Origin: a bacterium
Lineage (GTDB): Bacteria; Patescibacteriota; Doudnabacteria; UBA920
Assembly: GCA_016699995.1 (NCBI GenBank)
Contig: CP064996.1
Location: forward strand, 528,584-592,583
Length of the DNA: 64,000 bases
Reading direction: 5' to 3'
A program made the translations under genes and the position numbers. Position 1 is the first letter of the stretch. Every line of letters begins with the position of its first letter. Positions 10,856 through 37,510 of this stretch are shown in pieces. Under the pieces are notes generated by a model, which was not told the origin of the DNA, made no database searches, and saw only the letters and a list, made by a program, of their open reading frames with translations.

Positions 10856-10880
10856 TTAATTTATTATACCACAAAATTGG

Positions 10881-13780: not shown

Positions 13781-13783
13781 ATT

Positions 13784-15748: not shown

Positions 15749-16279
15749 ATAAATTCTATTTGAGTCCCAAAAAAGTTAATCGAGATAAGTGAAACCATTT
15801 TACCATAAATCACACCTTAAATAAAGGGTTTTAGAGTGACCAAACCATCATTCGGCGTCATTAATCCGTTGCTCGCAAATGCAGAACATACTAAACTGAC
15901 ACCTGACGAGTTTAAAACAACTAAGAAAGTGAGATGCTGTTCTCTGCTCCCCCTAAATCGACAGAACAAGATGAACCGGAAGCTTTTTCTATCTATTCCG
16001 AAATAAGGGAAATGATGAATATGACATATAGGAAAAGCCTACATACCGAGAGATTGTAGAGAATTCATTCAGCAAAGAACTCCCGTGCCATTGAATATTA
16101 TCTGTTTCGCAGGAAGAAGCCCCAAAAACAGCTCGGCAACCTTGGGATTACTTTAGCTTCCACACACCGAATCCTTCTTTTAATTTATGATAATAGCACG
16201 TATATTAATACAGTGAAATTTGGCTCTCACGAGGAATAGCTTGTACAAACCATTTTTAATATAATTTTAATTTAATTTC

Positions 16280-17494: not shown

Positions 17495-17499
17495 ATTAA

Positions 17500-19047
17500 T
17501 TATTTAATAGTCCACTTTTGCTTGCCGCCCCCTGCAAAGTGAGGCGCGCTTTGGTGTTGCCACAGCTTTACCACCGGCACCATCTTCTTGCTAAAGTTAG
17601 AGTGCAGCACGCGATACTCAGAATTCTTTTTTAACAGCACCTTTATTAACGTATCGCGCAGTGTAGCAATAAACTTCTTAGACAGCTTCGCTCCGGGCTT
17701 AAGTTCGGTATTAACCTCTAATACCGGATTATGCTTTTTGTCGTAAGTGATGCGCATGGCAAACTTGCCAGTCGTATGTTTATTTGTTGCTTTTGTTAAA
17801 TGCGCCTCGCGCACATGCTCCGGGTAAATATTGCCGCCGTACCAGCTCACCACCATATCGCTGCGCTCGTATACGTACACAAACGGCAAATTCCAAACGG
17901 TGTCTTTCAATTTTGCCGTCCTAATCTCTTTATCCAAATCAATGCCGCAGTCTTTAGCTTTGGCCATCACCTCCTTGGCGCTCATTATTCCGCCGCGGTC
18001 CTTGAGGTCATACCTAAACAAGGGCAGGCCGCTAAAAGCCGAGCAGTACAAATTTCCATTGTCGTTTTCGAAATAAAACAGCTCCGGCAAGTATTGCGTT
18101 AGTGTGGGTTGCCTTTCCAAAGCAGCGTCATTTTCGGCAATGCCAGAGAATAACTTAGCTTTAAACTTTTTATTCTTATTGCTTAGTCTGCGCACCAAAA
18201 TCGACAGCGGGGTTTCGTGAGAGTGAGTCCCCTGGTCCACAGTGCCGTAATGATTAAGCGTGGAAGTATAGATATTTTTTAGGCCAGCTTGTTTGGCCAC
18301 ATAGTCGCGAAATGCTTCGGTAAAACCTTCGGCCGAAAAAATTATTCCTAAATTATATTTCTTCCAGTTCAAGCCTTCGCTTAACCCTTGGTCGATGGTG
18401 TCTTTAACAAAGGGAGGATAGCCACCCAAAATAACCTGGTCGTATTTATCGCCTAACTGGCGCATAGCCTTAATGATCTCCTTGCTATTTACGCCTGGAG
18501 TAATAATGCTGATGTCGTAGCCTTTTTGCTGCAAAATCTGTACGGCTTCGTAAGTGAACAGGCCGCCGATCCACGCGCCCATAGCAAACCCGTCAATGTA
18601 TAAAGTGGACTTCTTGTGGATCTGAAAGTTGTTGCGCAAGTACAGCTCAGCGGTTAACGCATACTGCCGGCTCTGCTCATGCGTGCGCGGAAAATAAAAC
18701 GGTTCGCCGGTGGTGCCGGAAGTGGCGGCATAAACGCTCTGCTGTTTGCTTAACACGCCGTCCCAGCACAGCTGCTTAAGCGGATACTTGCGCAGGTAGT
18801 TGTTCTTGTCGATGGTCGGAACCAAAGCAAAATCCGCCGCGCTCTTTATCTTTGCAGGGTTCACTTTGTGCTTTTTTAAAAAGTCCTTGTACGCCGGAAC
18901 CCTCTTGGCCATTTCGTGGAACAGCTTGAGAGCGCGCTGCTCTCCCCGCTTCTGCCAGAAACTTTCCGGCTTGGTCTTTAAGTTCTTTTCTAAGGATGTA
19001 ATATTAGCGGTCTGCAATGATTTGGGAAATGAAAGCTCGTTCTTCAT
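17500..19047 (-). CDS. adenylate-forming ligase of the phenylacetate-CoA ligase (PaaK)/CapK/coenzyme F390 synthetase family, 515 aa
   Basis: P-loop-like YAATSGTTGEPFYFPRT (SGTTGxP). The size and N-terminal motif arrangement are typical of PaaK-like ANL enzymes. Confidence 0.65.
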   Translation of the reverse strand: MKNELSFPKSLQTANITSLEKNLKTKPESFWQKRGEQRALKLFHEMAKRVPAYKDFLKKHKVNPAKIKSAADFALVPTIDKNNYLRKYPLKQLCWDGVLSKQQSVYAATSGTTGEPFYFPRTHEQSRQYALTAELYLRNNFQIHKKSTLYIDGFAMGAWIGGLFTYEAVQILQQKGYDISIITPGVNSKEIIKAMRQLGDKYDQVILGGYPPFVKDTIDQGLSEGLNWKKYNLGIIFSAEGFTEAFRDYVAKQAGLKNIYTSTLNHYGTVDQGTHSHETPLSILVRRLSNKNKKFKAKLFSGIAENDAALERQPTLTQYLPELFYFENDNGNLYCSAFSGLPLFRYDLKDRGGIMSAKEVMAKAKDCGIDLDKEIRTAKLKDTVWNLPFVYVYERSDMVVSWYGGNIYPEHVREAHLTKATNKHTTGKFAMRITYDKKHNPVLEVNTELKPGAKLSKKFIATLRDTLIKVLLKKNSEYRVLHSNFSKKMVPVVKLWQHQSAPHFAGGGKQKWTIK

Positions 19048-21252: not shown

Positions 21253-21885
21253 TTAGTCCTTAACTAATTCAGCCTTCACAATATATCTTTTGAGGGCCGT
21301 GCCAATCGGGTATGAAGTCTGCAGGGTCAAGATGCGCTTGCCTCTGGTGTTTTGCTCGAGCTGTTTGACGTCGTTGCTTTCTACTACGAACTTATCATAA
21401 ACTCTATAGACGTACTTCTCGCCCTCTTTGTTAGTAACGCTCACTTCGGCGCCGATTTGGATTTTAGGCAGCAACGCAAACACAGTTTTGTAATCACCCT
21501 TGCTAAAAGCAAAGTCGGACGAGTGGCCAAAGATGTAGCTATTGCCTTCGGCGCCAAACTCCGCGGTGCCGGGATAATGAACAACGCCGTTGGCTAGCGC
21601 GGCTTGAAACACCGGTTCGTTAGATTCGGTCACATACTGAATCGGTGCAACTACATCCAACGAAGGAATTTGAAGCTGGCTCGGCTCTTCTACAACTGGT
21701 CGCTCGCGGCGAATGTTCTCGCGCTGCTGTTCTGTTACAAATACCTGACTGGTGTAATAGCGAAGCTGCTTGAAGAAATATTCGTTGTTTAAGAGCGCGA
21801 AGATTGCTGCTGCCACGAGGACTGCGATCACTGCCCATTTTATAATTTTACCTAGCATAAATTGAATGTGCGCCGAAATGCGCAT
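21253..21885 (-). CDS. sortase-family transpeptidase homologue with Ser in place of the catalytic Cys (protein contains no Cys), 210 aa
   Basis: N-terminal TM anchor. His-motif IFGHSSD. The TLxTC block reads RILTLQTSYPIG (DNA acc ctg cag act tca tac). Arg follows in LKRYIV. Adjacent to an LPRTG-bearing substrate. Confidence 0.65.
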   Translation of the reverse strand: MRISAHIQFMLGKIIKWAVIAVLVAAAIFALLNNEYFFKQLRYYTSQVFVTEQQRENIRRERPVVEEPSQLQIPSLDVVAPIQYVTESNEPVFQAALANGVVHYPGTAEFGAEGNSYIFGHSSDFAFSKGDYKTVFALLPKIQIGAEVSVTNKEGEKYVYRVYDKFVVESNDVKQLEQNTRGKRILTLQTSYPIGTALKRYIVKAELVKD

Positions 21886-21894
21886 TAGTTGTTA

Positions 21895-21930
21895 AAAGAA
21901 AAAACTACCTTATTGCTAAGGTAGTTTTAT
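21895..21930 (-). terminator. rho-independent terminator after the giant surface-protein gene
   Basis: aaaactaccttagcaataaggtagttttttc on the minus strand. Confidence 0.6.
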
Positions 21931-21938
21931 TATATCAC

Positions 21939-24900
21939 TTATTTTTGTTTGCTTGCCTTAACCTCTACGGTCGCATATTTGGGCAATAACACGATGGTTA
22001 ATAATCCCAAAATAGTGAATACAATAGAAGCTGGGGTTCCGGTACGAGGCAATGTTGTAGCGCCTAATACAGAACCAGTAGGAGCGGGAGTTTCTTGGTC
22101 GCTAGGGGTATTAGTAGAATCTCCCAGGACTCGTCCTGTTGGTGGAGGTGGAGTTTGGCCACCGCCGCCTCCGCCCGAGCTTCCGCCAGAGCCGCCATTG
22201 CCGCCGTTGCCGCCGCGGCCATTGTCGAAGTTACCGAAGTTGACCCCTACAGCATCCCCTGCTGAAGTAATTAGCAAAGGTCCTGCTGCAGCATGAGCAG
22301 TTTTAATGAATAGTGAAGCAAAGAATCCTTGGCCAGAGTCGGTAAATAACTCGTTACAGTTATTAACTCCGCCCACGGCTACGTGATATGAATCAGAATC
22401 CACGTCTGGTTCTGTAACGATCCAGCCGCCCGGAGTGCTTTCTGTTACTAAATAGCAACCGGCTACTAGACCAGTAAACTGATAATTACCATTTTCGTCC
22501 GAGGTAGTACTGTCGGTAAAGGCTTCTTCTTCACCTAATTTTTCGATATTAATCTGCCAGCCTGGCAAACCAGACTCGCCTTCGTCTTTTGTGTTGTTAG
22601 CATTGGAATCTTCGTAAACTATTCCGCTAATTTTGTATCCGGAACCGCCGTTGCCGCCACCATTACAATCAAAGGTAACATCGTCCAGCTTGTAAATGAG
22701 CCCCGTTGGGTTATTAGGCTGGTCAAAAGCGTCGTTCTTTACTACAAATTTTAAGGTGTGAGTGCCAGCGGTTAACGCTAACGCGCCAGTCGTAGAAACT
22801 GTAGTAAAACCGCTGTTTGGAGCTGTACTGCCAACCAAAACATCGTCTAGATAAGCTTCTACAGAGTTGTCACCGGCGAAGCTCAATACAGGAGAATTAA
22901 TATTAATTGCCCCCGCAGGAATGGTAAAGGTATGAGAGAATAATCGGTAAGATTCTACGCCGCCGTTATAGCCGGCCGCGCCGCCAAATGTCGGCTGAGT
23001 AGAATCATTGCTTACGTAGCTGGCTCCAGCAATGGCCGAACCGCTCCAAGCTCCAGGATATCCGGTAGAATCCGCTGATTGTGCAAATCCCCAGCTTCCC
23101 AATGGATAATTGCCAATGTTAGTTGGAATTGGAGGTACAGAACCCTCACGAACACCCCAAGACAGAGTTACGCCTGCGGCGCTGGCTACAGAAATCGGCT
23201 CATCTACGCATGGGGCAATCTTTTCTATGTTGTACGCAATACAGTAAATATTCTCTGGGGTTGCTCCGTTAAGATTGATGAATTCTAGGTTGTCTCCGTT
23301 GAAGGCGTCGTCGTAACATCGCAGTGCAGCAAAATCATAACCGCCTTGAGTAACTTCGCTCACCCAGAAGTTGCCATTCTGAATGCCAGCCTGCAATTCT
23401 GCAGACAAAGCCGAGCCCGGACCATACGCAGCGGTGGTATAAGTACCATTAACGGTAGCTACGGTTTGGTTATCGTCATTTTGGTCTTGATCCGTAGACA
23501 GCAAGAACTGCCAGTTATGAGCCATGGCACAGCCATCCGGAATTTCCTCAGGATCGACGAAGCCGCCTACCAAAGGACTAGGTGAAAATGCGCCATTTGC
23601 ATAGTTATTGAAATAGACATAATTGCCGCCGGTAGCATCGTACGCGTCGCTCATTGCATTTCCTGCAACATCGCTAAAGCTGTCGCAAACTACTTTGATC
23701 AAATGCAGGTTTGGAACAACCGGTTCCGGCTGATTGCAGATTTCGTCTACTACACAAGCGTTAACTAGAGTGAAGCCAGGATTGCCGTCGAGCAATGGAT
23801 TCGGGCCTTCGACTGGACCATTCACAACTACGATATCGCCTTCCCCATCTTCATTCATCCAGCCATCCTGCATAATCTCACCCAAGCTGTATGTGCCGTA
23901 AGGAACATCATTCAAAGTTACACAGCCGTCTTCTTCTGTTACGCCAGAATAGACTTCGTAAATCTTCACAGTTAGCGGGCCGACGTTGTCGCCGAACCAT
24001 GCGGAGCTGCTATTATCAGCATCATTCTGGTTGGCAAAATCATAAACACGGAATTTAGCGGTAGAGCCGCTGCCGGTCATCAGATAGTTATAGGTATGAG
24101 ATGTATTGTAAGGGCCCCATTCTACAAAGCCGTCATCAACCTGAAGCTCAAGCAATTCATCTTGATACCCGCCCTGAGGAGCGTCTAAAACTGTGCTCCA
24201 ACCGTCCGGAGTAGTAAACTTGGCATCTACAGTTTCGAAACTGCGATTGCCCCACGTGCCACTGGCAACGGCCAAGTATTGCTTGCCGTTTTGCAATGTT
24301 GCAGAAGTAGTAGCCCCTAAAGGATTATTAGAGTTTACAGAAACAGTTTCTACTAGCTTGCCTTTTAGGAATACAGTCCAGCCAGATAATGGTTGATCAT
24401 TAGCATCGTTTACCTTACAAACAGTTACTTGAGATTCACAGCCAGTGTCACACTTGTTTACGAGGGTAAAGGTATCGCTGACACCGTCTACATTAGCGGT
24501 TTGGCCTTGGCCAGAAACGTTGGACCAGCCCTGCTGCATAACTTCGTCAACAGTGTAAGTTCCAAAAGGTACGTCTTTGAGGGTAATACAGCCGTTGTCC
24601 CCTGTTGTTCCTTTTAGCACTTTATAAATATCCACAGTTAAGCTGCCGGAGTTATCGGAATAGTTATCGTCCAAAATTCGGAAGTCCATTGCATCAGGAC
24701 CGCCAAGAGTACGGAAAGTAGAGTATTGGTGTGCCGGGTTAAAAGTAGAGCCCCAATCGGTGAACCCTTGATCAATCTGAATACCCAGCCAGCCAGTGTG
24801 AGGGTTTGGAAAATCGTTCACTCTCACCCATGGAGCAAAAGCCCCACCGTAAACAGGATCAGAAGGCAAGCGCTTAGAATACGCTGCATCAGAAGTAGAC

Positions 24901-26837
24901 GCGGCAGGATCGCCAGGGCGATATACGTAAGTACCGCTAGCTTCTACAACATATTGGCCAGCAGGCAAAGTTCCTGCGGTAGAATAGTCCGCGCCATCAG
25001 GATATACAGTCACTGTTTCAATTTTTGGACCCTTCAAATAAACTTCCCAGCCGGACAACGGATTCTGGTTGTTATCTAACTTACAAATAGTAACGTCGGA
25101 CAGACATTCCTGCTTAACGCTAACATCATCTACGAACGCTCCAAAAGAATCGCCCACCCCTTGGTCGCTGATTTCCAAACGAGTGACGCCGCTTGTAGCA
25201 GTAAATGTGTAAACATGTTCGGTCCAGACAGTATTAAGATTGCCAGTACCATCTTCTATAATTGTATCTAGGACAACTGCACCGGCCTTAACCTGGGTAA
25301 CATTCTGAGAAGAATTCTGCCCTGGACGAGGAGAAGTCCATAGTTTAACGGTATACTTGCCGCCGGGAACAGTGATTAAGTCTTGGAAAAGTTTAACAGA
25401 TCCATTTTCACCGTTAGTCGGGTCAGACGGGCCGCCCCAATCAGAATCTAGCTCAGTATGTTGAGAACCACTCTTAGGGTCCCAACCATTTACACCGCGA
25501 TGCAATTCGGCCTTTGCAATTGCAGGAGCACCGGTTGGATTAACCCAGTCTACACTCCAGCCTAGGCCAGGTGTACCAGAATCACGAACATCCCAGCTAT
25601 TAGAGAGTACAGGAGCTTCGAATCCACCATTAGCTACTAGCTCTGCACTACAAGGCTGTGGTGTTTTTAATTTATTAATAACTGTGTGAGTACATGGTTC
25701 TTGAGAATCTACGTCACAAACAACGTCAACACTTCCAACTGTTTGATCATCAACTTCCCAACCTGCTGGTAAGCCAGTTTCTGTAACGGTAATTTCTTGA
25801 CCATTATTAACGATTATTGCGTCGTGATTACAAACTAAAGTATCACCTTCATACTTACATGTAGCAGGTGCATTGCCGCCGTAGTTTACTGTAATGGTAA
25901 TATCATCTTTATTATCCGGAGCAGGAATTGGATTTCCTTGAGCATCCTGCCAAATTTTTTCAATTTCAATATCTACTGGAGTAGGTGTAGGAACAGGTTC
26001 AAAGTCATAGGTTGTAATCAATGAAGCAGTAGAAACCACCACTTTATCCAAATAACCATCTAATCCAGCGTCAGAAGCGGAAGTATCGCCAACATTCAAA
26101 GCAAACATGCGGATATTTGATCCTGAGCTAAAATTATTCATATCTGCCGGCACAGAAGGGCAAGTGTGAGGCGAAGGGTCTCCACCAGCTCTAGTTGTAA
26201 CTGGATAAGACTGTGTGGGATCAAATGTTACAGTTGTAAAACTACCTGTAGAACCAAAAGTTGGTACAACATTATATCTACAATCATAAAACTTGGTTGG
26301 GCTAGACGAACCAAAGTTTGCATAAACGTTCATGTAGAATTGCTCTTCATCAGTATTGTCACCGCCGCTGCCAATTTTAAAGTCATAGCTAATGCTATTT
26401 ATATCTACTATTAACTTGTTAATAAAATTTTCAGCGACCATCTTGTCTGCTGGTGTAGCTCCAATAGGTAAGACATTTAAGCTCCCCGACCCAATACTTG
26501 CCGCGTTTGTATTAAATGCAAAAGGAGTATCTGTGGAAGTATCACGGTTAAACATCCAGCCAGGTTGGTTTTCTCCAGCAGCTGTGTCGCCAGTAATAAT
26601 TATAGTATTACTTGGAATTGCTGGTGTATCTAAACTCTCACAACCACCCTGAGGCACAGGGTATACATCACCATGATTAATATGGGTCTGCAATGAATTT
26701 GAGTTTACACTTAAGCTATTGTATCCATTGCCAGTTTTGTGGCAAACATCAACAAAAGTTGTTGCCGCATAAGTGGTGGAGAGAGGTGCAAGCACTGTGC
26801 TTACCAAAGCAAAGCGCGATACGCCTTGATATGCCAA
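21939..26837 (-). CDS. giant (1632 aa) secreted cell-surface protein with LPXTG-type (LPRTG) C-terminal sorting signal, repeated SpaA/SdrD-B/prealbumin-like Ig domains, DUF642-like jelly-roll region and Gly-rich linker
   Basis: Signal peptide MAYQGVSRFALVSTVLAPLSTTYAA. Internal repeats (NPLSGWEVYLKG / QPLSGWTVFLKG; GTYTVDEVMQQGW / GTYSLGEIMQDGW). SdrD-B-like block SGIVYEDSNANNTKDEGESGLPGW...NGNYQFTGL. C-terminal LPRTG, then a hydrophobic stretch, then a KYATVEVKASKQK basic tail. Confidence 0.85.
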   Translation of the reverse strand: MAYQGVSRFALVSTVLAPLSTTYAATTFVDVCHKTGNGYNSLSVNSNSLQTHINHGDVYPVPQGGCESLDTPAIPSNTIIITGDTAAGENQPGWMFNRDTSTDTPFAFNTNAASIGSGSLNVLPIGATPADKMVAENFINKLIVDINSISYDFKIGSGGDNTDEEQFYMNVYANFGSSSPTKFYDCRYNVVPTFGSTGSFTTVTFDPTQSYPVTTRAGGDPSPHTCPSVPADMNNFSSGSNIRMFALNVGDTSASDAGLDGYLDKVVVSTASLITTYDFEPVPTPTPVDIEIEKIWQDAQGNPIPAPDNKDDITITVNYGGNAPATCKYEGDTLVCNHDAIIVNNGQEITVTETGLPAGWEVDDQTVGSVDVVCDVDSQEPCTHTVINKLKTPQPCSAELVANGGFEAPVLSNSWDVRDSGTPGLGWSVDWVNPTGAPAIAKAELHRGVNGWDPKSGSQHTELDSDWGGPSDPTNGENGSVKLFQDLITVPGGKYTVKLWTSPRPGQNSSQNVTQVKAGAVVLDTIIEDGTGNLNTVWTEHVYTFTATSGVTRLEISDQGVGDSFGAFVDDVSVKQECLSDVTICKLDNNQNPLSGWEVYLKGPKIETVTVYPDGADYSTAGTLPAGQYVVEASGTYVYRPGDPAASTSDAAYSKRLPSDPVYGGAFAPWVRVNDFPNPHTGWLGIQIDQGFTDWGSTFNPAHQYSTFRTLGGPDAMDFRILDDNYSDNSGSLTVDIYKVLKGTTGDNGCITLKDVPFGTYTVDEVMQQGWSNVSGQGQTANVDGVSDTFTLVNKCDTGCESQVTVCKVNDANDQPLSGWTVFLKGKLVETVSVNSNNPLGATTSATLQNGKQYLAVASGTWGNRSFETVDAKFTTPDGWSTVLDAPQGGYQDELLELQVDDGFVEWGPYNTSHTYNYLMTGSGSTAKFRVYDFANQNDADNSSSAWFGDNVGPLTVKIYEVYSGVTEEDGCVTLNDVPYGTYSLGEIMQDGWMNEDGEGDIVVVNGPVEGPNPLLDGNPGFTLVNACVVDEICNQPEPVVPNLHLIKVVCDSFSDVAGNAMSDAYDATGGNYVYFNNYANGAFSPSPLVGGFVDPEEIPDGCAMAHNWQFLLSTDQDQNDDNQTVATVNGTYTTAAYGPGSALSAELQAGIQNGNFWVSEVTQGGYDFAALRCYDDAFNGDNLEFINLNGATPENIYCIAYNIEKIAPCVDEPISVASAAGVTLSWGVREGSVPPIPTNIGNYPLGSWGFAQSADSTGYPGAWSGSAIAGASYVSNDSTQPTFGGAAGYNGGVESYRLFSHTFTIPAGAININSPVLSFAGDNSVEAYLDDVLVGSTAPNSGFTTVSTTGALALTAGTHTLKFVVKNDAFDQPNNPTGLIYKLDDVTFDCNGGGNGGSGYKISGIVYEDSNANNTKDEGESGLPGWQINIEKLGEEEAFTDSTTSDENGNYQFTGLVAGCYLVTESTPGGWIVTEPDVDSDSYHVAVGGVNNCNELFTDSGQGFFASLFIKTAHAAAGPLLITSAGDAVGVNFGNFDNGRGGNGGNGGSGGSSGGGGGGQTPPPPTGRVLGDSTNTPSDQETPAPTGSVLGATTLPRTGTPASIVFTILGLLTIVLLPKYATVEVKASKQK

Positions 26838-28634: not shown

Positions 28635-28675
28635 ATAAAAAAAGGCAGTTCTAATCGAACTGCCTTGTATTAATT
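28635..28675. terminator. hairpin aaggcagttc-taatc-gaactgcctt between convergent genes (bidirectional terminator)
   Basis: 10-bp perfect stem flanked by A/T runs. Confidence 0.55.
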
Positions 28676-28695: not shown

Positions 28696-29217
28696 CTAGT
28701 CGCCCTTTTCGCCTGCGTCTTTGGCGAACTCAACGCTGTCTCCGCCGTAAACGACATAGTCATTGTTGACTTCCTGGCCATTAACGTAGGCTTTAGCCGC
28801 CGGAGAAATACTCAAAGCATCTCCCAGCTTGCCGCGCAGAGCGCGAATGGTCATGCCGCTCACGTTAAGCGACTTCTGGTGAGCGCCGCTGACAACTTGG
28901 ACAGCGGTGGCACCCGTGGCTTCGGCCAAACCGGTAGACTCGAACGCGATGCGGTCGCCGGCCTGGATCGTGTAATTATCACCGATCTGCTCGCCCGAAA
29001 CAAACGCTTTGTGGTGCTTGCCCAGGCTGAGGCTGGCGCCGTACTGGTCGCGAATGAAAAAGATCGATTTACCGACTGCGTCGGACTCAGGGATGTTGAT
29101 CACATTCCCGTCACACGACACCTCGATAACGTTATCCCTCGTTTCATCAAACAGATCCGCAAACATGTTACCGCCTGCTTCCGTAGTTTCCATATCAAAT
29201 TCGTTTTCATTTGCCAT
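28696..29217 (-). CDS. tandem ThiS/MoaD-like beta-grasp (ubiquitin-like) protein, two ~65-aa Ubl repeats after a ~30-aa leader, 173 aa
   Basis: Repeats ...ASLSLGKHHKAFVSGEQIGDNYTIQAGDRIAFESTG and ...DALSISPAAKAYVNGQEVNNDYVVYGGDSVEFAKDAG match the ThiS consensus (vavNGe.v.....l.dGD.vei). Preferred start ATG at 29217 (MANENEF) with GGAGG ~15 nt upstream, 8 nt after the E1 stop. The track ORF extends to 29343 but overlaps E1. Confidence 0.6.
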   Translation of the reverse strand: MANENEFDMETTEAGGNMFADLFDETRDNVIEVSCDGNVINIPESDAVGKSIFFIRDQYGASLSLGKHHKAFVSGEQIGDNYTIQAGDRIAFESTGLAEATGATAVQVVSGAHQKSLNVSGMTIRALRGKLGDALSISPAAKAYVNGQEVNNDYVVYGGDSVEFAKDAGEKGD

Positions 29218-29224
29218 AGTTCTT

Positions 29225-29968
29225 TTATAGTTCCTCCATACTTTTTGACGAGACCGCTCTTTGAGCAAGCCCCTTGATACTACAATATACAATATCCGGG
29301 AAAAAAGGCTTCTCGGTATAGTACACATTGTAGAAAACTTCACCCATTAGTGCCGCCACCCGCCAGTTGGTGAAAATCAGTTGGGGGGCTCCTGCGACAG
29401 CCAGTTCTTCACAACCGGCTTCGCCTGGATTCTTATCCTTTGGATCACCGATCGAAGGCGAGCTTTCGACTAGGGATTTAGTGAAATTTTCACCATCTTT
29501 CCTAATGTACAGCTGTACGCTTCCGTCGTCAAACTCATTTCCGCCGCAGATCATCACCGCATCGGCGAGATCTTCGAACCGTTCGGAAAAGAGCTTTCGT
29601 GAAGCATTATTATCCACTCCCATGAACACCAGATCATTTTCCCGGACATGCCGGTTGATGTTAGCCTTGGTTACGTACTCCATGACTGTCGATATTCTGA
29701 GATTGGTAAAATGCGCGACTTGATCTCTCAGAAGCTCGGCCTTATAGCCAAGCCCGTTGAAATTTTGTCTGGTAAAATTCCGTTCTTCTACTTTGTCGCC
29801 ATCGATGAGGACGATCTCCGTCTTTTCTCCACCTTCCTTATGGGCAAAGTGCAGAAATCGGCATAGGGGCGGGACAAGCCAGCCCCCAATGCCGCCACAT
29901 CCAACCACGACAATGCGGTTGAATTTATTGATCATTAGTTCCCTCCTTAACTGCCGTTTCAGTTGCAA
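29225..29968 (-). CDS. minimal E1-like (ThiF/MoeB superfamily) adenylyltransferase, 247 aa
   Basis: NRIVVVGCGGIGGWLVPPL...IVLIDGDKVEERNFTRQNF is the E1 nucleotide-binding signature. No rhodanese or Cys-rich C-terminal domain. 5' end overlaps JAB gene by ~44 nt. Confidence 0.75.
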   Translation of the reverse strand: MQLKRQLRRELMINKFNRIVVVGCGGIGGWLVPPLCRFLHFAHKEGGEKTEIVLIDGDKVEERNFTRQNFNGLGYKAELLRDQVAHFTNLRISTVMEYVTKANINRHVRENDLVFMGVDNNASRKLFSERFEDLADAVMICGGNEFDDGSVQLYIRKDGENFTKSLVESSPSIGDPKDKNPGEAGCEELAVAGAPQLIFTNWRVAALMGEVFYNVYYTEKPFFPDIVYCSIKGLAQRAVSSKSMEEL

Positions 29969-31667
29969 CCTCTACTATCACGGCATCCGCTTCCGGAGCC
30001 GTTGGAGCAACAATGACCGGCTCCAAAGGTGTCGGAACAGGCACATAGGGTGTTGTCAAACTTAACGGGTTTACAGCACTGTGCGGTATCTTCGAATTGC
30101 CGCTGACCGAAACTTCAGCCTTCGCCGGAGCATTTGCTTCGGGCAGGGCTGGAGGTTTCGGAGGCGGTCCTTCCCCTGGGAGGTACGGTGTCGTTCTCGA
30201 ACCGCTTCTCGAAAAGGCTCCGGGATTTTGATTCATCCCGGATTTTTGGGCCATCGGTTTATAAGGTGGCCTAAAAAAGGATCTTTCTCTCACCATATCG
30301 AACCAGGATGTTGGGAAGTTGATCTGTTTTGCAGAAGTTATTTGCTCCGGCAAAATCAAATCATATTCCTTTCCAGTTCTAGACACGCCGCCAAACCAGC
30401 CGCCGTCATTGCTGCTTTCGGATACATACCCCTTAACCGACGGCCTCGGATTGACATCCTTGACAGGTTCCGGTTTTGGGGCAGCACCTCCGATCGGAAC
30501 AATAGGCACGGTATATTTCCACAACCGATGCCATGCGCGATAGGTATAGTAGCGACAAACGCCAAGCTGATGGTCTTCTCCGATCTTGTTCTGAGCTACT
30601 TCCGGTCCATCGAGTTCCTGCCATGTCCTCCACTTAAGGGAGATACACAGCATGATAAAGAATGAAATCGGCAAAAACAGCCAGAACACCAACCGGTCTT
30701 CGAACTTCACTCGTTCCGGGTACTTAAGCGTCGGTCGGTAAGACACGCTTCTTCGTACCTGGTCTGCGATCGCCGGACTTGCTTTTCCATGACCAGGCAC
30801 TACCGGGGTTGGATCCCCAGGAATAACCTGGATCTTTGTTGCGATTACAGCAGGCGGTCCGTCTAACGGCTGCTCTTGCGGCTGCTCCACAGCCACAGGC
30901 TGGGTTTCGACAGCCGGTTCCGGAGTCTCGACCGGTTTTGGCTCTTCCGCCTCCTTGGCAGCTTTTTTGATGTTATAAAGAAGCTTGCCTAAGGTATTGC
31001 CTTGATAAGCACTGCCGTAACTTGTAAGGACAAGCCCGTCGATCACATCTTCCGGTTTAACTTTAAACCGGCTTGCGTTGACCGACAGTTCGGAGCTGAC
31101 GGAGAATCCGCCCCAATCCATATTCCCCAAAGTTACGTGCAGACCGTCGAAGTTGATCTCATCGTGAGTATCGGTACCAGAATGATAGGCCGCGAAACCT
31201 GCGTGGGAATGGATAGAACCAACCAGCAGGTAGCCCGGTTTGCGGGGCGGCGGCTTGTAAGAGATGCCTCCGCCCGAAACATCCTGTTCCGGACATCCGA
31301 AGAAATACTTTTGGTCGTGCAGCGAGTAATAGATTAAGACCATCGCTTCGGCCTTGCGGGCTTCATACACCATCTTAAAAAAGTAAGCGGTATGAATCAT
31401 CTCCTTCAGCGGCAGTTTAGGCAAAAGCCATTCTGCCGATTCGCGATGAGGCGCAAGGTCACCAATTGCCTTCACTTTCACCGTGGCGTCCAGCACGCTA
31501 GTTCTCTTATGAACGAACGGGCCGTTGGAAGCCAAGATGTAGTGATAATCAGGCGGCTGAAATCCTGGTGCAAATAGCGGAGCCCCCGTCCTTTTGATAA
31601 AGACCGGGATATCCCCATTATTGTTTGCAGTCGGCACAGCCGGAGTAACGTTTATCTTTTCTGTCAT
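29925..31667 (-). CDS. JAB/MPN+ (JAMM) metallopeptidase domain protein with Pro-rich linker, single TM helix and large C-terminal region, 580 aa
   Basis: JAMM motif GSIHSHAGFAAYHSGTDTHDE (HxHx7Sx2D) with upstream Glu. PEPAVETQPVAVEQPQEQP linker. TM LVFWLFLPISFFIMLCISL. Start overlaps upstream gene stop (ATGA). Confidence 0.8.
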   Translation of the reverse strand: MTEKINVTPAVPTANNNGDIPVFIKRTGAPLFAPGFQPPDYHYILASNGPFVHKRTSVLDATVKVKAIGDLAPHRESAEWLLPKLPLKEMIHTAYFFKMVYEARKAEAMVLIYYSLHDQKYFFGCPEQDVSGGGISYKPPPRKPGYLLVGSIHSHAGFAAYHSGTDTHDEINFDGLHVTLGNMDWGGFSVSSELSVNASRFKVKPEDVIDGLVLTSYGSAYQGNTLGKLLYNIKKAAKEAEEPKPVETPEPAVETQPVAVEQPQEQPLDGPPAVIATKIQVIPGDPTPVVPGHGKASPAIADQVRRSVSYRPTLKYPERVKFEDRLVFWLFLPISFFIMLCISLKWRTWQELDGPEVAQNKIGEDHQLGVCRYYTYRAWHRLWKYTVPIVPIGGAAPKPEPVKDVNPRPSVKGYVSESSNDGGWFGGVSRTGKEYDLILPEQITSAKQINFPTSWFDMVRERSFFRPPYKPMAQKSGMNQNPGAFSRSGSRTTPYLPGEGPPPKPPALPEANAPAKAEVSVSGNSKIPHSAVNPLSLTTPYVPVPTPLEPVIVAPTAPEADAVIVEVATETAVKEGTNDQ

Positions 31668-33271
31668 GCCTTCAATTTTCTCCTTAACATATTCTCAGAC
31701 AGCGTGAGCGGCGTAGCTTGTAGCCTTATAGGCACTTCTTCGCTTAGCTCCTCAAAATGATTTTGAACCGTTTCGTGAAAGCGCTCCACGATAGTATCGT
31801 GAAACCTGGCCACTAGCGCCGGATTCAAAGAGTCGGGGAATGCCTGGAAAAAATCTTCTCCAAACATCGACCACGCAGCCTTAATCTGCCTCCGCAAGTG
31901 TTCTTCTAATTTCTGAACAGTTACTTTGCCAAACTTGTTCTTTGTAGTCAGGTTCTCTTTGAGCTTTTTAGCGATTCGCTTGCCAACTCCGAGGCGGAAT
32001 TCCTCGCCAAAAGCGCGGATCACCTCTTCGGTGTTGCGGTCAACAGCTTTGCCGCCTTTGGTGGCTGCAATGCCGCTGCCGTAGTGATTGATGTAGTCCT
32101 CAAGCGTATAGCCCTTTCGCCAGGTTTCTGGCTCCAAGGCGAACGTATGATCTCGGATCGACAGGTCTTCCCACTTTTTAAAGCCTACTGCCGCGCCGCC
32201 GGAACCAGTATTGATTCCCGCCGGGAAGTAGACGTTGCCAGTCCAATGGCTATTAAACCGGCTTTCCCAAAAATGGCTGATGCCTCTCTGGATTTCGCGG
32301 TAAACATCCCGATTGGAACTACCTGGCAACTGCGTGCAGATTCTGTACATGTTGGCCGCGCTATCAAAGTTGGGTAGATTCGGCAGGTACAGCTGGTCGG
32401 TTCTTGACTCGATAGGTTTTAAACTATAGGCCATGGTCATGTTTTGGATCTGACCGCCAATCAACCGTATAAAGAAGACCGTGTAAGGGAAAGCCAGACG
32501 CATACGCGTCATTCCCCTTTCGGTTCGGCCCGCGATGGTGAAGTAGCTCTGATCGATTACAATCGTCCGAACGCGAGGTTCTTCTTCCACAACAACCAAA
32601 GCCTGGTCGCCGCTAGCAAAGAAGTACTTCACATTTTTCGGAAACACGTTTTGCGTGCCAATGGCAGCGTACTGTTTGGAAACGTCGATAATGTTTTTGA
32701 CGACTTTATCAAACGCTCCCTTCCACAAGCTCTCGATCTCCTGGACCAATTCGTCTTCCAGATAACCTGTAACTTCGTCTTTATAACTTGCCAATGCCTG
32801 GTCAACGATTTCTTGCGCCGTAGCCTTAACCGCCTTAAAGTCGGTGAACTCTTTTTCCATGGCCATCTTCGCTGCTACTTCCCTTGCTTTAGGGGCGAGG
32901 GACTTAACAATATGAGAGGCCAAGTCCATTGCAACATGGTTATCCATTTCTGTAAGCCCAGATAGCTGCCTCGAAGCGATCTTTAAACCAAGTTCGCGGA
33001 ATGCTCGAGTTTTGCTATCACCCAAAATCATGCCTTTGAACATGTCAAAGCTGACCTTTGCGATAGTAACTTCTGAATATATAGGTGTGGGCAAAAGCCT
33101 CCACCGGACATCAACACGACCTTTTATTAAGCTGGCAGAGCCATCTTCGTCCATCATAATGCGAGCGGGACGGTCGATCATGTCGAGATATTCAGGAGCA
33201 ACCTGCTCTACAAACCATTGCTTGATAACGCCGCTAAGCGTGTCATCAAAAGATTCGTACATTGCTGACAT
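31664..33271 (-). CDS. uncharacterised 535-aa protein, first gene of the Ubl operon; central segment resembles an E2/UBC-like active-site arrangement (hypothesis)
   Basis: AFPYTVFFIRL...LYLPNLPNFDSAANMYRICTQLPG resembles the E2 pattern (fP..Pf...F....HPN....G.ICL.iL), with LPN in place of HPN and one candidate Cys. The rest is unassigned. Confidence 0.4.
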   Translation of the reverse strand: MSAMYESFDDTLSGVIKQWFVEQVAPEYLDMIDRPARIMMDEDGSASLIKGRVDVRWRLLPTPIYSEVTIAKVSFDMFKGMILGDSKTRAFRELGLKIASRQLSGLTEMDNHVAMDLASHIVKSLAPKAREVAAKMAMEKEFTDFKAVKATAQEIVDQALASYKDEVTGYLEDELVQEIESLWKGAFDKVVKNIIDVSKQYAAIGTQNVFPKNVKYFFASGDQALVVVEEEPRVRTIVIDQSYFTIAGRTERGMTRMRLAFPYTVFFIRLIGGQIQNMTMAYSLKPIESRTDQLYLPNLPNFDSAANMYRICTQLPGSSNRDVYREIQRGISHFWESRFNSHWTGNVYFPAGINTGSGGAAVGFKKWEDLSIRDHTFALEPETWRKGYTLEDYINHYGSGIAATKGGKAVDRNTEEVIRAFGEEFRLGVGKRIAKKLKENLTTKNKFGKVTVQKLEEHLRRQIKAAWSMFGEDFFQAFPDSLNPALVARFHDTIVERFHETVQNHFEELSEEVPIRLQATPLTLSENMLRRKLKA

Positions 33272-33382
33272 AATATCCTCCTAAATGTATGAAAAGTACC
33301 CTTTGCCGGTAATTCGGCAAAGACTTGTAAGAGTAACATATGAAGCAGAAAAAGTCAATTCCCTTTCAACTAAGAATAAAAA

Positions 33383-33412
33383 CAAAAAATCCCTTAAATA
33401 TAAGGGATTTTT
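33383..33412 (-). terminator. rho-independent terminator of the rplM-rpsI transcription unit
   Basis: aaaatcccttatatttaagggatttttt on the minus strand, 15 nt after the rpsI stop. Confidence 0.65.
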
Positions 33413-33426
33413 GAGTATAAAAGGGA

Positions 33427-33987
33427 TTAACGCTTTGCCCACTGTGGCGAACGGCGCGCACCGCGGAGACCTGGCTTTTTTCGTTCCTTTTTACGGTCGT
33501 CTCGGGTCAAGAAACCGTTCTTCTTGAGCACGCTTTGAAGGTCGTTGTTAAGCTTAGACAAGGCCTGAGCTACGCCATGACGCACTGCTTCCACCTGGGA
33601 ATTGCGTCCGCCGCCGGCAACGTGGCTAGTAAAATAATACTCGCCCATCAAGCCGGTTACCGCCAAAGGACGGAGTGCAGTGTCTTGCTGCGGCTTGTTA
33701 GGAAAATAAGCTTCGAAAGCTTTCTTGTTAACAATATTGTCACCACTGCCTGCAAATAATCGCACGTTGGCAATCGCCGTCTTGCGTCGGCCGGTGGCAA
33801 AGATATATTTGCCGGAAGCAGGCTTGGCATGATCTGCAGTCTTCGCGCTAGAGGACTTTGCAACTACTGCCTTAACCTCCGCCTTTGGAGCTGCTTCCTT
33901 TTTTGGAGCAACTTTTTTAGCGACGGCCTTTGCAGGGGCCTTCTTGGCTACAGTTTTTTTAGCTGGAGTTTTCTTTGGAGTTACCAT
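33427..33987 (-). CDS. rpsI: 30S ribosomal protein S9 with ~60-aa Lys/Ala-rich (histone H1-like) N-terminal extension
   Basis: C-terminal ...GGGRNSQVEAVRHGVAQAL...KKPGLRGARRSPQWAKR matches the S9 end (..RRAPQFSKR). N-terminal PKKTPAKKTVAKKAPAKAVAKK low-complexity region. Confidence 0.9.
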   Translation of the reverse strand: MVTPKKTPAKKTVAKKAPAKAVAKKVAPKKEAAPKAEVKAVVAKSSSAKTADHAKPASGKYIFATGRRKTAIANVRLFAGSGDNIVNKKAFEAYFPNKPQQDTALRPLAVTGLMGEYYFTSHVAGGGRNSQVEAVRHGVAQALSKLNNDLQSVLKKNGFLTRDDRKKERKKPGLRGARRSPQWAKR

Positions 33988-33989
33988 AA

Positions 33990-34421
33990 TTATTTAATCT
34001 CTTTATCAATCTTATAAGTGTGCTTATCGCCTTTTACAAGCTTGAGGCGAGAAACCATTGTCTTACGAAATTTAACTTCATCAAGCATAGAAAATACTGC
34101 GCGCTGCAAAACCTTTTCCGGGTTGCGTACGATTTCATCTTTCAAAGTCTTAGTCTTGAGTCCGCCCAAGTAGCCGGAGTGATGATAATACTTCTTCTGC
34201 TCAACCTTGCGGCCGGTAAACTTTAGCTTATCCACGTTGATAGCGACTACAAAATCACCCATATCCATATGAGGAGTAAAGTTGCGCTTGTGCTTGCCGC
34301 GAAGAACGTTAGCAATCTTGGTAGCTACGCGTCCCATAGTCTGGCCGCTTGCATCGACAACGAACCATTGGCGGGAAATTTCTGATACTTTTGGTAGAGT
34401 AATTTTTTGAGTCTTTAACAT
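33990..34421 (-). CDS. rplM: 50S ribosomal protein L13
   Basis: QWFVVDASGQTMGRVATKIANVLRGKHK...YHHSGYLGGLK is the canonical L13. Confidence 0.9.
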   Translation of the reverse strand: MLKTQKITLPKVSEISRQWFVVDASGQTMGRVATKIANVLRGKHKRNFTPHMDMGDFVVAINVDKLKFTGRKVEQKKYYHHSGYLGGLKTKTLKDEIVRNPEKVLQRAVFSMLDEVKFRKTMVSRLKLVKGDKHTYKIDKEIK

Positions 34422-34436
34422 ATATTTATCTAAACC

Positions 34437-34781
34437 TTATTCTACAAATTCCAACACTGCTTTAGAAAGACCAGCTTTTGGATTATTCAACTTAGTTAAT
34501 CTTAAATAGCCACCATTGCGAGCGCTATAGCGAGGGCCGTAAACTTCCAATGCTTTTGCAGTTGCATTGCGGGACAGCTTAGACAACAGCATGCGGCGGT
34601 TGTGCAAAGTGTTTTCTTTCGAACGGGTAATCAGCTTTTCTAAGTAAGGCTTAACGGCGCGGGCATTAGCGTAAGAAGTTTCGATTCTTTCGTATAGGAT
34701 CGCTGAAGAAGCCAAAGTACGCAACAATTTGCGGCGATGGTCCATGCCTTTTCCAAATTTTTTCTTCTTCTGGTGTCTCAT
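34437..34781 (-). CDS. rplQ: 50S ribosomal protein L17 (start chosen at MRHQKKKK; the ORF extends to 34823 with a GTG start)
   Basis: MRHQKKKKFGKGMDHRRKLLRTLASS...GGYLRLTK matches L17. Confidence 0.8.
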   Translation of the reverse strand: MRHQKKKKFGKGMDHRRKLLRTLASSAILYERIETSYANARAVKPYLEKLITRSKENTLHNRRMLLSKLSRNATAKALEVYGPRYSARNGGYLRLTKLNNPKAGLSKAVLEFVE

Positions 34782-34831
34782 AAAATAATAATTATCTTTA
34801 ATTGTCGGCGCTAAGGCTAGCACCCGGGAGA

Positions 34832-35803
34832 TTACTGCTGGGTACGGCCCAACATTTCCATAATTTCATTAATAGTCTTTTCGCCTAGTCCGGAAATATT
34901 ATTAATATCATCGTCAGACATTGCAGTCAATGCTTCCATGGTGTTAATGCCGGATTTCTGCAAAGCATTCTTAGCGCGGTTAGACAAAGTAGTATCGTCA
35001 ATCGGAGTGCCGGTTTCTGCCGGTTCTGCCAATTCGCTAGGAACTTCCTGAGGAGCTTCTTCCATAGCTGCTTCTTCTAGCGCTGCCTGGCTCATCATTT
35101 CGAGGCGTTCTGCACCCTCATTGTTGAACAGCATGCTAAAGTGATCTACTAAGATGTGGGAAGCAATGTCGATTGCTTCGCCGCCAGTAATAGTGCCGTC
35201 GGTTTCCATGCGCACAACCAGCTTATCGAAGTTAGTCATGCCGCCAACGCGGACGTTTGATACGTCAAAGTATACGGAACGAACCGGGGTGTAAATTGCG
35301 TCGATCGCCAGCATGCCTGCTTCTAAATTAGCGGCACTTGGTCGAACCTCTACCGGCTCATAACCGCGGCCCTGTTCGACAATCAGTTCCATTTCCAGGT
35401 CAGAATTCTTGTTATCCAAAGTGCAGATGTAAAGATCCTTGTTCACTACTTCTACCTGGTCGGTTTCGCCAATCATGTCTGCGGTAATAACGCCTTCGCC
35501 CTTGGCGGTAAGCTTCAAGCGAACCGGTTCGGTCGAGAAGCTGCGCAAGCGAAGCTGTTTAAGGTTCAGAATAATCTGAATCACATCTTCCTTTACGTTT
35601 GGAATCGCAGAGAACTCGTGGTCAACATATTTAATTTTAACCGCAGTTACTGCTGCACCAGGCATGGAAGACAGCAAGACGCGGCGAAGCGTATTGCCGA
35701 TAGTCACGCCGTAGCCAGGGTAAAGTGGCTCGAGGACTGCTTCGTAAGAGTTGCCACCTAAGTGGGAAATCTTCGCCTGATTTGGTAATGGGATTGGTTG
35801 CAT
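34832..35803 (-). CDS. rpoA: DNA-directed RNA polymerase subunit alpha
   Basis: N-terminal domain GYGVTIGNTLRRVLLSSMPGAAVTAVKI. C-terminal domain with NISGLGEKTINEI helix-hairpin-helix. Confidence 0.9.
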   Translation of the reverse strand: MQPIPLPNQAKISHLGGNSYEAVLEPLYPGYGVTIGNTLRRVLLSSMPGAAVTAVKIKYVDHEFSAIPNVKEDVIQIILNLKQLRLRSFSTEPVRLKLTAKGEGVITADMIGETDQVEVVNKDLYICTLDNKNSDLEMELIVEQGRGYEPVEVRPSAANLEAGMLAIDAIYTPVRSVYFDVSNVRVGGMTNFDKLVVRMETDGTITGGEAIDIASHILVDHFSMLFNNEGAERLEMMSQAALEEAAMEEAPQEVPSELAEPAETGTPIDDTTLSNRAKNALQKSGINTMEALTAMSDDDINNISGLGEKTINEIMEMLGRTQQ

Positions 35804-35927
35804 AAATGCCCCTTAGTTACTGCACGCTTTGGCCAATGATCGTGTGTCTGCGAAAAGTAACTTATTAATGATTGATTGAAGGCCGAGCGATAACGCTCTG
35901 GCAATAAAACTAAATTTAGATACGGCC

Positions 35928-36536
35928 CTAGATTCTGCTGTAGTGTTCGACGATAAGCTGAGTGTCGATGAGGTTGCCGATTTGTTCTGGTGTCGGTGTC
36001 GATAGAACTTTACCGGAAAAATCCGCTGCCTTAAGCTCTACCCAGTCCTGGCTCTTAAAATTCTTCAACACTTCGCGCATAGACTGCATGTACTTAGATT
36101 CTTTCTTGTTAGCGCGAACGGAGATAACATCTCCCGGCTTAGTAGCGTAAGAAGGAATATCAACTTTCTTGCCGTTAACTTCGAAGAAACCATGGTTCAC
36201 CAGCTGGCGAGACTGCGCCCGGGTAGCAGCAAATCCTAAGCGGAATACTACGTTGTCCAAGCGAAGCTCTAAAGCTGCCAGCAAATGATCACCGGTTACA
36301 CCAGCGCCTTTTTGGGCCTTTTCGAAGTAGCGCAAGAACTGGCGTTCGGTTACCCCGTAATTGATCTTAGCCTTCTGCTTTTCGCGCAACTGGGTGCCGT
36401 ATTCAGAAATACGAACGCGGTTTTGGCCGTGCTGGCCAGGTGCGAAGTTGCGCTTCTGCAAGATCTTGGCGTCCTTATCGGTAAAGGCAAACCCTAACCG
36501 ACGGGCTCTTTTAACTTTTGGTCCTGTATATCGCAT
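35928..36536 (-). CDS. rpsD: 30S ribosomal protein S4
   Basis: MRYTGPKVKRARRLG...LRLDNVVFRLGFAATRAQSRQLVNHG (S4 domain). Confidence 0.9.
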   Translation of the reverse strand: MRYTGPKVKRARRLGFAFTDKDAKILQKRNFAPGQHGQNRVRISEYGTQLREKQKAKINYGVTERQFLRYFEKAQKGAGVTGDHLLAALELRLDNVVFRLGFAATRAQSRQLVNHGFFEVNGKKVDIPSYATKPGDVISVRANKKESKYMQSMREVLKNFKSQDWVELKAADFSGKVLSTPTPEQIGNLIDTQLIVEHYSRI

Positions 36537-36537
36537 G

Positions 36538-37053
36538 TTATACCCTTCTCACTTTCTTCGGACGCACGCCGCCATGTGGGGTTGGGGTTCGATCTTTAAT
36601 GGTTAAAACAGTCAAGCCGGCACCGAGCAAAGCGCGAATGGCTTGTTCGCGGCCGCTGCCGATTCCTTTAATAAAAATATCAACTTCCTGCAAGCCGCGG
36701 TCTTTAACGCGGGACAATACATCTTCCATAGTTTTACCGCCGGCGTAAGGAGTAGATTTCTTAGAGCCTTTGAAGCCAGCTTTGCCGGCGCTACCCCAAG
36801 CAATCACGTTGCCGATCGGATCAGTTACAGAAATGATGGTGTTGTTGTAAGTGGAGTTAATAAAGATCTTGCCCTTTGGAACTTTGATCTTGTTCTTCTT
36901 TTTCTTACCGCCCTTGATCTTAGTGGCAATGTCGTCGCCGCTAGATGCTGCATTCAACTCGGCACTGACCTGTTCGGCTGCGCTCATTTCGGTAGCAGGA
37001 GTTTCGGCTACGGGAGTATCTTGTTTAATTGTTGTGTCGTTAGTATCAGACAT
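36538..37053 (-). CDS. rpsK: 30S ribosomal protein S11 (with acidic/Lys-rich N-terminal extension)
   Basis: GKIFINSTYNNTIISVTD...AWGSAGKAGFKGSKKSTPYAG...GIGSGREQAIRAL. Confidence 0.9.
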   Translation of the reverse strand: MSDTNDTTIKQDTPVAETPATEMSAAEQVSAELNAASSGDDIATKIKGGKKKKNKIKVPKGKIFINSTYNNTIISVTDPIGNVIAWGSAGKAGFKGSKKSTPYAGGKTMEDVLSRVKDRGLQEVDIFIKGIGSGREQAIRALLGAGLTVLTIKDRTPTPHGGVRPKKVRRV

Positions 37054-37120
37054 AATAGTTTATATAGTTATGGCTTTTACGAAGTTTAGTGCTTCGTAAT
37101 CGCTATGCGCGAGCTGCGCT

Positions 37121-37510
37121 TTAGGTCTTATCGGATGCTTTCTTACGGCCGCTGCCTGCAGTGCGACGAACGTTGCCGTGTCGGGTGCGGGAATTGGTCT
37201 TGGTGCGCTGTCCGCGAACCGGCAAACTCTTTTTGTGGCGAGTGCCTCGGTAAGAACCGATTTCCTTAAGGCGCTTGATGTTAAGCAGAACTTGCTGCTT
37301 AAGGTTGCCTTCGGTCTTAAAGTTCTTATCGATGTAATCGCGCAGCTTGGTTAAGTCTGCTTCGGACAAATCTTTAGTGCGAATGTCAGGGCTTACGCCT
37401 GTTTCAGACAGTGCTTTCTTTGCTAAGGTCGCCCCTACTCCGTAGATATACTGCAGAGAGGCTTCGATTCTTTTTTCGGTAGGAATATTTACTCCAGCGA
37501 TACGTGCCAT
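37121..37510 (-). CDS. rpsM: 30S ribosomal protein S13
   Basis: [26 protein letters not shown]...[22 protein letters not shown]. Confidence 0.9.

Follow-up and report, generated by a model that had tools for sequence, protein, structure and literature searches.

The four-gene cassette and its boundaries

The window analysed here, a 64,000-nucleotide stretch of a Doudnabacteria genome (UBA920 lineage; GenBank assembly GCA_016699995.1, contig CP064996.1, positions 528,584 to 592,583), contains a compact four-gene cassette whose last gene, Ubl2, encodes a ubiquitin-like protein (Ubl) of 173 amino acids (aa). The three genes upstream encode an E2-like protein (X), a JAB metalloprotease (J) and an E1-like adenylating enzyme (E). 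All four genes lie on one strand in the order X-J-E-U (U, the Ubl gene) and overlap or almost abut. The features of the locus, listed in the direction of transcription, are as follows.

33300..33412, minus strand: intergenic gap separating rpsI from the gene for X, containing two hairpin and T-run sites (terminator/promoter scan, open reading frame map)
31664..33271, minus strand: E2-like protein X, 535 aa, with a conserved core at residues ~191–423 (32003–32701)
29925..31667, minus strand: JAB/JAMM metalloprotease, 580 aa (Pfam Prok-JAB 5.5e-4)
29225..29968, minus strand: E1-like adenylating enzyme, 247 aa, ThiF fold (Pfam ThiF 1.7e-12)
28696..29217, minus strand: Ubl2 gene, 173-aa tandem beta-grasp Ubl, last of the four operon genes (open reading frame, AlphaFold2, Foldseek, HMMER)
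28930..29133, minus strand: unit 1 of Ubl2, residues 29–96, a diverged copy of the beta-grasp that lacks the GxKG tail (hhalign, phmmer, pLDDT >90)
28702..28908, minus strand: unit 2 of Ubl2, residues 104–172, a unit of the canonical family type that closes in the invariant G169-x-K171-G172
28642..28666, minus strand: strong hairpin resembling an intrinsic terminator, a 10-bp stem followed by the T-run TTTTTTATTTT (terminator scan and sequence)

The Ubl2 reading frame runs from an ATG at 29217 to a stop codon at 28696–28698, and its product reads MANENEF…FAKDAGEKGD. An alternative GTG start would give a product of 215 aa and would overlap the upstream E1 gene; the ATG start gives a length that matches the closest homolog (P0002, 37% identity) and is preceded by a GGAGGA Shine-Dalgarno-like element inside the final codons of the E1 gene. 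The terminator-like hairpin starts 30 nucleotides past the Ubl2 stop codon, is common to a convergent plus-strand gene and marks the operon end. At the other boundary, the two hairpin and T-run sites in 33300..33412 suggest that the four-gene cassette is a transcription unit separate from the ribosomal operon that precedes it.

The Ubl2 protein: two beta-grasp units and a predicted Lys-Gly end

When the two halves of Ubl2 were aligned to each other, BLASTP gave 32% identity over 44 aa (E = 5e-9). Two tandem beta-grasp repeats had been proposed for 28696–29217 in a first-pass annotation made from the sequence alone; its coordinates were exact, the peptides that it quoted are present, and the proposed repeat is borne out by this alignment. 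A profile–profile comparison had been set beforehand as the refutation test, and it supported the repeat: the unit 1 profile (window protein and P0002) aligned to the family unit profile over 60 columns in hhalign (probability 98.1%, E = 8.5e-14), the alignment stopping at F92-E93, ahead of the tail. Residues 28–93 alone matched Ubl units of other family members in phmmer (E = 2e-8 to 1e-5).

The AlphaFold2 model of Ubl2, built on a 55-sequence alignment, had a mean predicted local distance difference test score (pLDDT) of 86.9 and reached ~95 inside both units, so that the structure prediction called for at the outset returned two beta-grasp folds. These span residues 30–94 and 106–165, each with the order beta-beta-alpha-beta-beta-beta; the linker at residues 98–100 is disordered, and the acidic N-terminal tail ahead of unit 1 (residues 1–28) was modelled with low confidence. 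The top Foldseek matches in the PDB were linear di-ubiquitin, ISG15, FAT10, polyubiquitin and a Citrobacter multi-ubiquitin (E ~1e-6). Ubl2 is thus two beta-grasp ubiquitin-like domains in one chain. A match of unit 1 to the FHA domain, just under threshold in Pfam (20.3 bits against a cut-off of 20.7), reflects a shared 'NG..v....l..GD.i.f' strand motif, and FHA identity was rejected because both the predicted fold and the comparison of profiles point to beta-grasp. Matches of the Ubl to TGS, Ub-Mut7C and Poly_export were set aside as generic beta-grasp similarity.

By sequence, the Ubl unit falls nearer to ThiS, MoaD and SAMP within the fold, a similarity at superfamily level only. Pfam ThiS matches 27 of 55 relatives at E<0.01, and the solved sequences nearest to a Ubl2 unit are SAMP2 and ThiS (E values of at least 0.012), in agreement with the ThiS/MoaD-like character first assigned to the repeats. 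Ubl2 itself scored 18.7 bits against Pfam ThiS (PF02597), under the cut-off of 22.5, and its terminus is KG-D, not Gly-Gly.

Relatives of the Ubl were collected by exhaustive HMMER search (E<=1e-3), which found 426 proteins, a large family spread over uncultured bacteria, viruses and a few archaea; word-indexed homology searches with Ubl2 and with the 535-aa X returned only the query itself. Family units are ~68 aa long and close in 'GDxLEFVKxAGxKG'. Four residues are invariant in the 55-sequence alignment, G121, G169, K171 and G172 in the numbering of the window protein, with codons 169–172 at 28702–28713 and the Asp173 codon at 28699–28701. Ubl2 therefore ends G169-E-K171-G172-D173, and the non-GG terminus originally noted stands. 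The protein end is exactly KG in ~45 of the best 150 relatives, with many others being 1–3 residues longer; across genome loci, KG was followed by no residue in 20, by one in 10 and by three in 45. Because many relatives stop exactly at KG, Gly172 is almost certainly the mature reactive end of Ubl2, and Asp173, a propeptide of one residue, is all that has to be trimmed. Such a Lys-Gly end is unusual; most Ubls end in Gly-Gly.

Viral Ubls and some Ubls of the candidate phyla radiation (CPR) carry an N-terminal Rho_N/SAP-like helix-extended-helix module before a single GxKG unit (Pfam Rho_N 8e-18; examples are L128:7264–7773, L147:6484–7023, L159:645–1133 and L030:4429–4863), and in one locus (L163) the whole Rho_N–Ubl module is doubled in tandem. 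Public annotations name the family proteins 'hypothetical' or 'MoaD/ThiS family'. Literature searches gave no description of the Ubl family within a searchable literature that is incomplete, many subscription papers lying outside it.

Nearly all family Ubl genes across the loci are single-unit. Head-to-tail arrays of 2, 3 and 4 units also occur (P0003, P0004, P0006–P0013, L098/L190, L183 and L205), and in these multi-unit relatives AGxKG closes every unit and the next unit follows directly, as in polyubiquitin. These arrays, together with the predicted disorder of the inter-unit linker, would favour reading Ubl2 as a poly-Ubl precursor that the JAB protease cuts both between the units and at the C-terminus, releasing two separate modifiers. 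The junction itself argues otherwise. Unit 1 of the window protein ends '…AFESTGLAEATG' and that of P0002 ends '…SFDSNGIGGGSS', both without the invariant G, K and G that close each unit of a true array, and a released unit 1 would therefore carry no family-type reactive end. We consider such a precursor unlikely. Because unit 1 has lost the GxKG tail, Ubl2 probably acts as one uncleaved di-Ubl of the ISG15/FAT10/BilA kind with a single reactive end, its N-terminal beta-grasp unit being most likely a permanent accessory domain and not a second releasable modifier.

The poly-Ubl proposed in the first-pass annotation is accordingly not upheld, since the genuine arrays keep AGxKG at their junctions. 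Its statement that each repeat ends in a single Gly implies equivalent ends, but the end of unit 1 does not align to the invariant GxKG of unit 2. C-terminal processing by a JAB protease, as it had suggested, is probably needed, although a cut between the repeats is unsupported and only Asp173 requires removal. The two-domain Ubl that it put forward as a di-Ubl modifier was confirmed, but calling this rare in bacteria was an overstatement: di-Ubls are already known there as Type I BilA and as 7% of Bub Ubls (PMC11601603).

Operon partners and distribution of the cassette

The JAB protease invoked in the earlier annotation and an E1 were both found next to Ubl2, upstream on the same strand. The best NCBIfam match of the E1 was PRTRC_ThiF (5.2e-15; 55.4 bits, under the cut-off of 144.75). 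Its GxGGxG loop lies at residues 23–28 and the codon of Cys186 at 29411–29413; across 105 E1 homologs the loop and the Arg/Lys/Asp adenylation residues are kept, and Cys186 is conserved at 99%. For the JAB protein, the best NCBIfam match was PRTRC_A (1.6e-8; 34.4 bits, under the cut-off of 101.8). The metal motif is intact, comprising Glu107 and H153-S-H155-x7-S163-x2-D166 (31170–31211), and E107, H153, H155, S163 and D166 are all 100% conserved in 94 homologs. Read from the translation, the long C-terminal extension of this protein contains a stretch of hydrophobic residues (LVFWLFLPISFFIMLCISL) and has a tail rich in Pro.

The E2-like gene, absent from the earlier annotation, completes with the E1 and JAB genes an E2-like/JAB/E1/Ubl cascade. 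The window X had no match of its own in Pfam, NCBIfam or PADLOC library scans. Asn301 and Cys312 (32336–32371) are invariant in 65 diverse sequences, in the pattern L-P-N-x10-[VI]-C; the invariant columns of the X alignment are P, P, N, C and W only, with no invariant His after the Cys. The Asn…Cys arrangement appears to be that of the E2 'HPN…C' active site. Homology of the X core extends to a 783-aa neighbour of a Buchananbacteria Ubl (Prok-E2_D 9.8e-5, PRTRC_B 0.017), to a ~880-aa viral protein with a Prok-E2_D match at 0.0049, and to the domain fused behind 'GEKG' in three natural fusions of one Ubl unit with an E2-like X domain (P0119, P0127 and P0137 (L003:130–1203)). In L003, the Ubl–X fusion gene is followed by one intervening gene and then by a JAB gene running off the contig end. 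Structure prediction of X with a 10-sequence alignment reached moderate confidence only, and a profile search with the X alignment returned 6 proteins only.

A degenerate DNA pattern that encodes the C-terminal motif was used to seek further loci; because this pattern carries ~39 bits, only a few chance matches are expected by calculation. It was found at at least 120 places in species-representative genomes, those listed being mainly from Chloroflexota, Planctomycetota, Saccharibacteria and other CPR, and Victivallales, with some archaea, and at 81 places on IMG/VR viral contigs. Cassette components were scored with hidden Markov models (HMMs) from the window and two other loci. All four occurred together in at least 58 of ~95 informative genome loci, most of the others being truncated; among viral stretches, 20 had all four components and 44, on truncated stretches, had two or three. 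The gene order is U-X-J-E in Chloroflexota and X-J-E-U in the window, other CPR genomes and viruses.

Among the loci collected, the cassette closest to that of the window was found in a Buchananbacteria metagenome-assembled genome (MAG). The window cassette lies directly downstream of rpsM-rpsK-rpsD-rpoA-rplQ-rplM-rpsI (33427–37510), and the Buchananbacteria cassette directly upstream of infA-rpmJ-rpsM…rpsI (L004:9776–13894), at the opposite end of the same ribosomal/RNA polymerase alpha cluster. Adjacency to this operon was rejected as a family trait, being seen only in the window and one Buchananbacteria genome among the loci examined. The GC content of the window cassette (~0.50) is only slightly shifted from that of its flanks (0.42–0.49), and no tRNA gene (20–40 kb scanned) or integrase flanks it.

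On viral contigs, a recurrent block has the order radical-SAM gene, small open reading frame, X (~880 aa), JAB (~600 aa, with a zinc-ribbon-like C-terminus), E1 and Ubl, followed by p190, a second ThiF-family gene, p155 and Rpb1-like (903 aa) and Rpb2-like (1006 aa) RNA polymerase genes. It was seen in L160:441–13905 (IMG/VR UViG_3300031539_003894), L171, L128, L130, L201 and others; 46 loci have the Rpb1-like gene and 70 have the second ThiF gene. A tblastn search of GenBank phages with the poly-Ubl P0003 gave no match. Two loci, L098 (a Melioribacteraceae MAG) and L190 (an IMG/VR UViG), are both 177,804 bp and encode an identical Ubl2 with KG at both unit ends; this resembles a large phage contig that was assigned to a bacterial MAG during binning, and L044 and L049 also have the appearance of viral contigs within MAGs. 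The 9-kb metagenomic scaffold that carries a 4-unit poly-Ubl cassette (L002:7188–8366) also has a reverse transcriptase (Pfam RVT_1) and many small open reading frames, a context that looks phage- or mobile-element-like.

Some Chloroflexota MAGs have three or four U-X-J-E copies on separate contigs (MGR_bin130: L008, L052, L055 and L078; SKS1.bin7: L084, L094, L108 and L127; MnB_4: L029, L116 and L123), which suggests a multi-copy or mobile element. In the Ubls of these copies, KG is nearly always followed by three more residues, for example LAA or QQA. E1 matches on plasmids were weak (26–31% identity). A Leptolyngbya plasmid (L006, NZ_CP046156.1) and a linear plasmid of C. perfringens (L007, NZ_CP075935.1) carry ThiF genes at 29–31% identity among phage-like genes, for example siphovirus Gp157, with a JAB gene adjacent in L006; no family-type Ubl or X was detected on either with the cassette HMMs.

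Elsewhere in the window, a second, unrelated ThiF-family gene at 16280–17494 resembles the Rv1355c family (E = 8.6e-93) and adjoins a PaaK-like adenylating enzyme (17500–19047). The surrounding region (8130–19047) also holds an Acg-family flavin mononucleotide (FMN) oxidoreductase (9839–10855) and a histidine kinase, with a Type III restriction-modification pair in between (11180–15748). The 21253–26837 region encodes a 1632-aa surface protein with a sortase sorting signal at its end, made up of LPRTG, a hydrophobic helix and a basic tail, and the adjoining gene encodes a sortase (Pfam Sortase 3.8e-24).

Proposed conjugation cascade and comparison with known systems

Taken with the four-gene synteny, these results make it likely that Ubl2 is a two-domain modifier and that the three upstream genes encode a self-contained cascade for its conjugation. 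The individual steps were derived from the conserved residues and by comparison with Ubl cascades that are already established. The JAB metalloprotease would remove Asp173, exposing Gly172 of G-x-K-G, and the short E1 would adenylate Gly172, possibly forming a thioester on Cys186. The Ubl would then pass to Cys312 of X, with Asn301 in the role of the canonical E2 'HPN' Asn, before being joined by an isopeptide bond to a lysine of some target; the JAB may also reverse this attachment. The cascade is supported by the adenylation motifs and near-invariant Cys of the E1, by the complete conservation of the JAB E/HxH/S/D residues, and by the Ubl–X fusions, whose GEKG junction parallels the JAB-cut BubAB fusion. 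Weighing against it are the penultimate Lys, which in place of Gly is unusual for E1 substrates, the lack of any recognisable E3 or target gene, and the PADLOC defence models, which matched none of the four proteins beyond generic E1 similarity.

Were X a catalytically irrelevant UEV/RWD-like or unrelated fold, the Ubl would only be adenylated and processed, for instance to serve as a non-covalently bound regulator, with no E2 step and no conjugation. A Cys and an Asn 11 residues upstream of it that are invariant in 65 diverse sequences are hard to explain without catalysis, and X orthologs match Prok-E2_D across the Cys region; we regard this scaffold role as improbable. The Ubl might also be a sulfur carrier of the ThiS/MoaD type, on which a ThiF-like enzyme makes a thiocarboxylate for cofactor synthesis or tRNA thiolation. 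Weak similarity to Pfam ThiS and to NCBIfam MoaD/ThiS/SAMP2, the ThiF/MoeB-like character of the E1 and the name 'MoaD/ThiS family protein' given to a relative by one source are all in keeping with such a carrier. However, the terminus is KG and not GG, the operon has no ThiG, MoaE or rhodanese partner, linkage of the cassette to a JAB and to an E2-like protein with a Cys is strict, and the family includes polyubiquitin-like arrays and occurs on viral contigs, all of which make sulfur transfer very improbable. Conjugation of Ubl2 through X thus remains the preferred reading, and the abundance of the cassette on viral contigs, together with its multiple copies in some MAGs, points to a biological role in virus–host or mobile-element conflict.

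Bacterial Ubl conjugation (CBASS Cap2/Cap3, Bil and Bub) is a young field in which only a small number of families have been characterised. The cassette is compact and complete, combining E2-like, JAB, E1 and Ubl genes with conserved catalytic residues and a Lys-Gly reactive end, and it is abundant in almost unstudied lineages (CPR, Chloroflexota and DPANN) and on viral contigs. If active, it would be an additional, independent thioester-type ubiquitination system, would show that genes with di-Ubl and poly-Ubl architectures arose more than once outside eukaryotes, and would prompt the question of its use to viruses. The window gene is among the few members found in which a second beta-grasp appears to have turned into a fixed accessory domain.

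The closest described system is the PRTRC or '6d' operon, which encodes a Ubl, a JAB with a JAB-N region, an E1-like protein, an E2-like protein (Prok-E2_D) and an alpha-helical protein and is usually found with ParB on mobile elements; in its E2-like protein, the catalytic Cys is followed by a His that is absolutely conserved (Iyer, Burroughs & Aravind 2006, PMC1779556). The window cassette has the same four enzymatic parts, with best matches to PRTRC_ThiF (E1), PRTRC_A (JAB) and PRTRC_B/Prok-E2_D (X orthologs), and its Ubl family shares the small size and conserved C-terminal Gly, one member matching PRTRC_C at 4.6e-4. In contrast, the window scores fall far below the curated PRTRC cut-offs (TIGR03735–03738; ThiF 55.4 against 144.75, A 34.4 against 101.8), PRTRC B and C had no NCBIfam match among the window proteins, and an X ortholog scored 14.5 against 131.45 for B. 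Window-family X has an invariant Asn before the Cys and no invariant downstream His, and no conserved Arg/Trp was seen in the N-terminal region of the window-family JAB. No alpha-helical-enzyme or ParB-related gene was recognisable, the four genes being bounded by rpsI and the terminator. The window family also differs in its range, which spans CPR, Chloroflexota, Planctomycetota, DPANN-type archaea and viruses.

The Bil, Bub and 6e polyUbl systems are more distant. In Type I Bil, which acts in anti-phage defence, BilA is a two-beta-grasp, ISG15-like Ubl encoded with an E2, a JAB and an E1 (PMC11601603). The window cassette likewise encodes a di-beta-grasp modifier with one reactive C-terminus together with E1, E2-like and JAB proteins; however, PADLOC gave no match for the Ubl, JAB or X and matched the E1 to BilD at E = 0.011 only, and the window family has GxKG unit sequences and mostly single-unit members. 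Bub operons encode BubCD, a JAB–E1 fusion, and BubE, a serine protease (DUF6527), whereas the window operon has separate JAB and E1 genes and neither a DUF6527/BubE gene nor a Ubl–E2 or E2–E1 fusion. BubAB is a Ubl–E2 fusion cut by its JAB, and the Bub pathway uses oxyester intermediates with no catalytic cysteines (PMC11601596). The Ubl–X fusions of the window family resemble BubAB, but its E1 and X conserve a Cys. ISG15 and FAT10, which are among the best fold matches, have the same two-domain architecture as Ubl2, and the multi-unit relatives are built like precursors of polyubiquitin, down to short propeptides at the C-terminus; identity to these eukaryotic proteins is 7–18%, the units being ThiS/MoaD/SAMP-like and ending in KG, not GG.

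Overall, the cassette represents a variant form of the bacterial ubiquitin-like conjugation operon, a kind of system that is already known. We suggest only tentatively, as something short of an even prospect, that the window gene represents an undescribed major prokaryotic and viral class (E2-like/JAB/E1/'GxKG' Ubl), remotely related to PRTRC, present across CPR, Chloroflexota, Planctomycetota, DPANN-type archaea and viruses with their own multisubunit RNA polymerase, and a source of both polyubiquitin-like precursors and ISG15-like di-Ubls.
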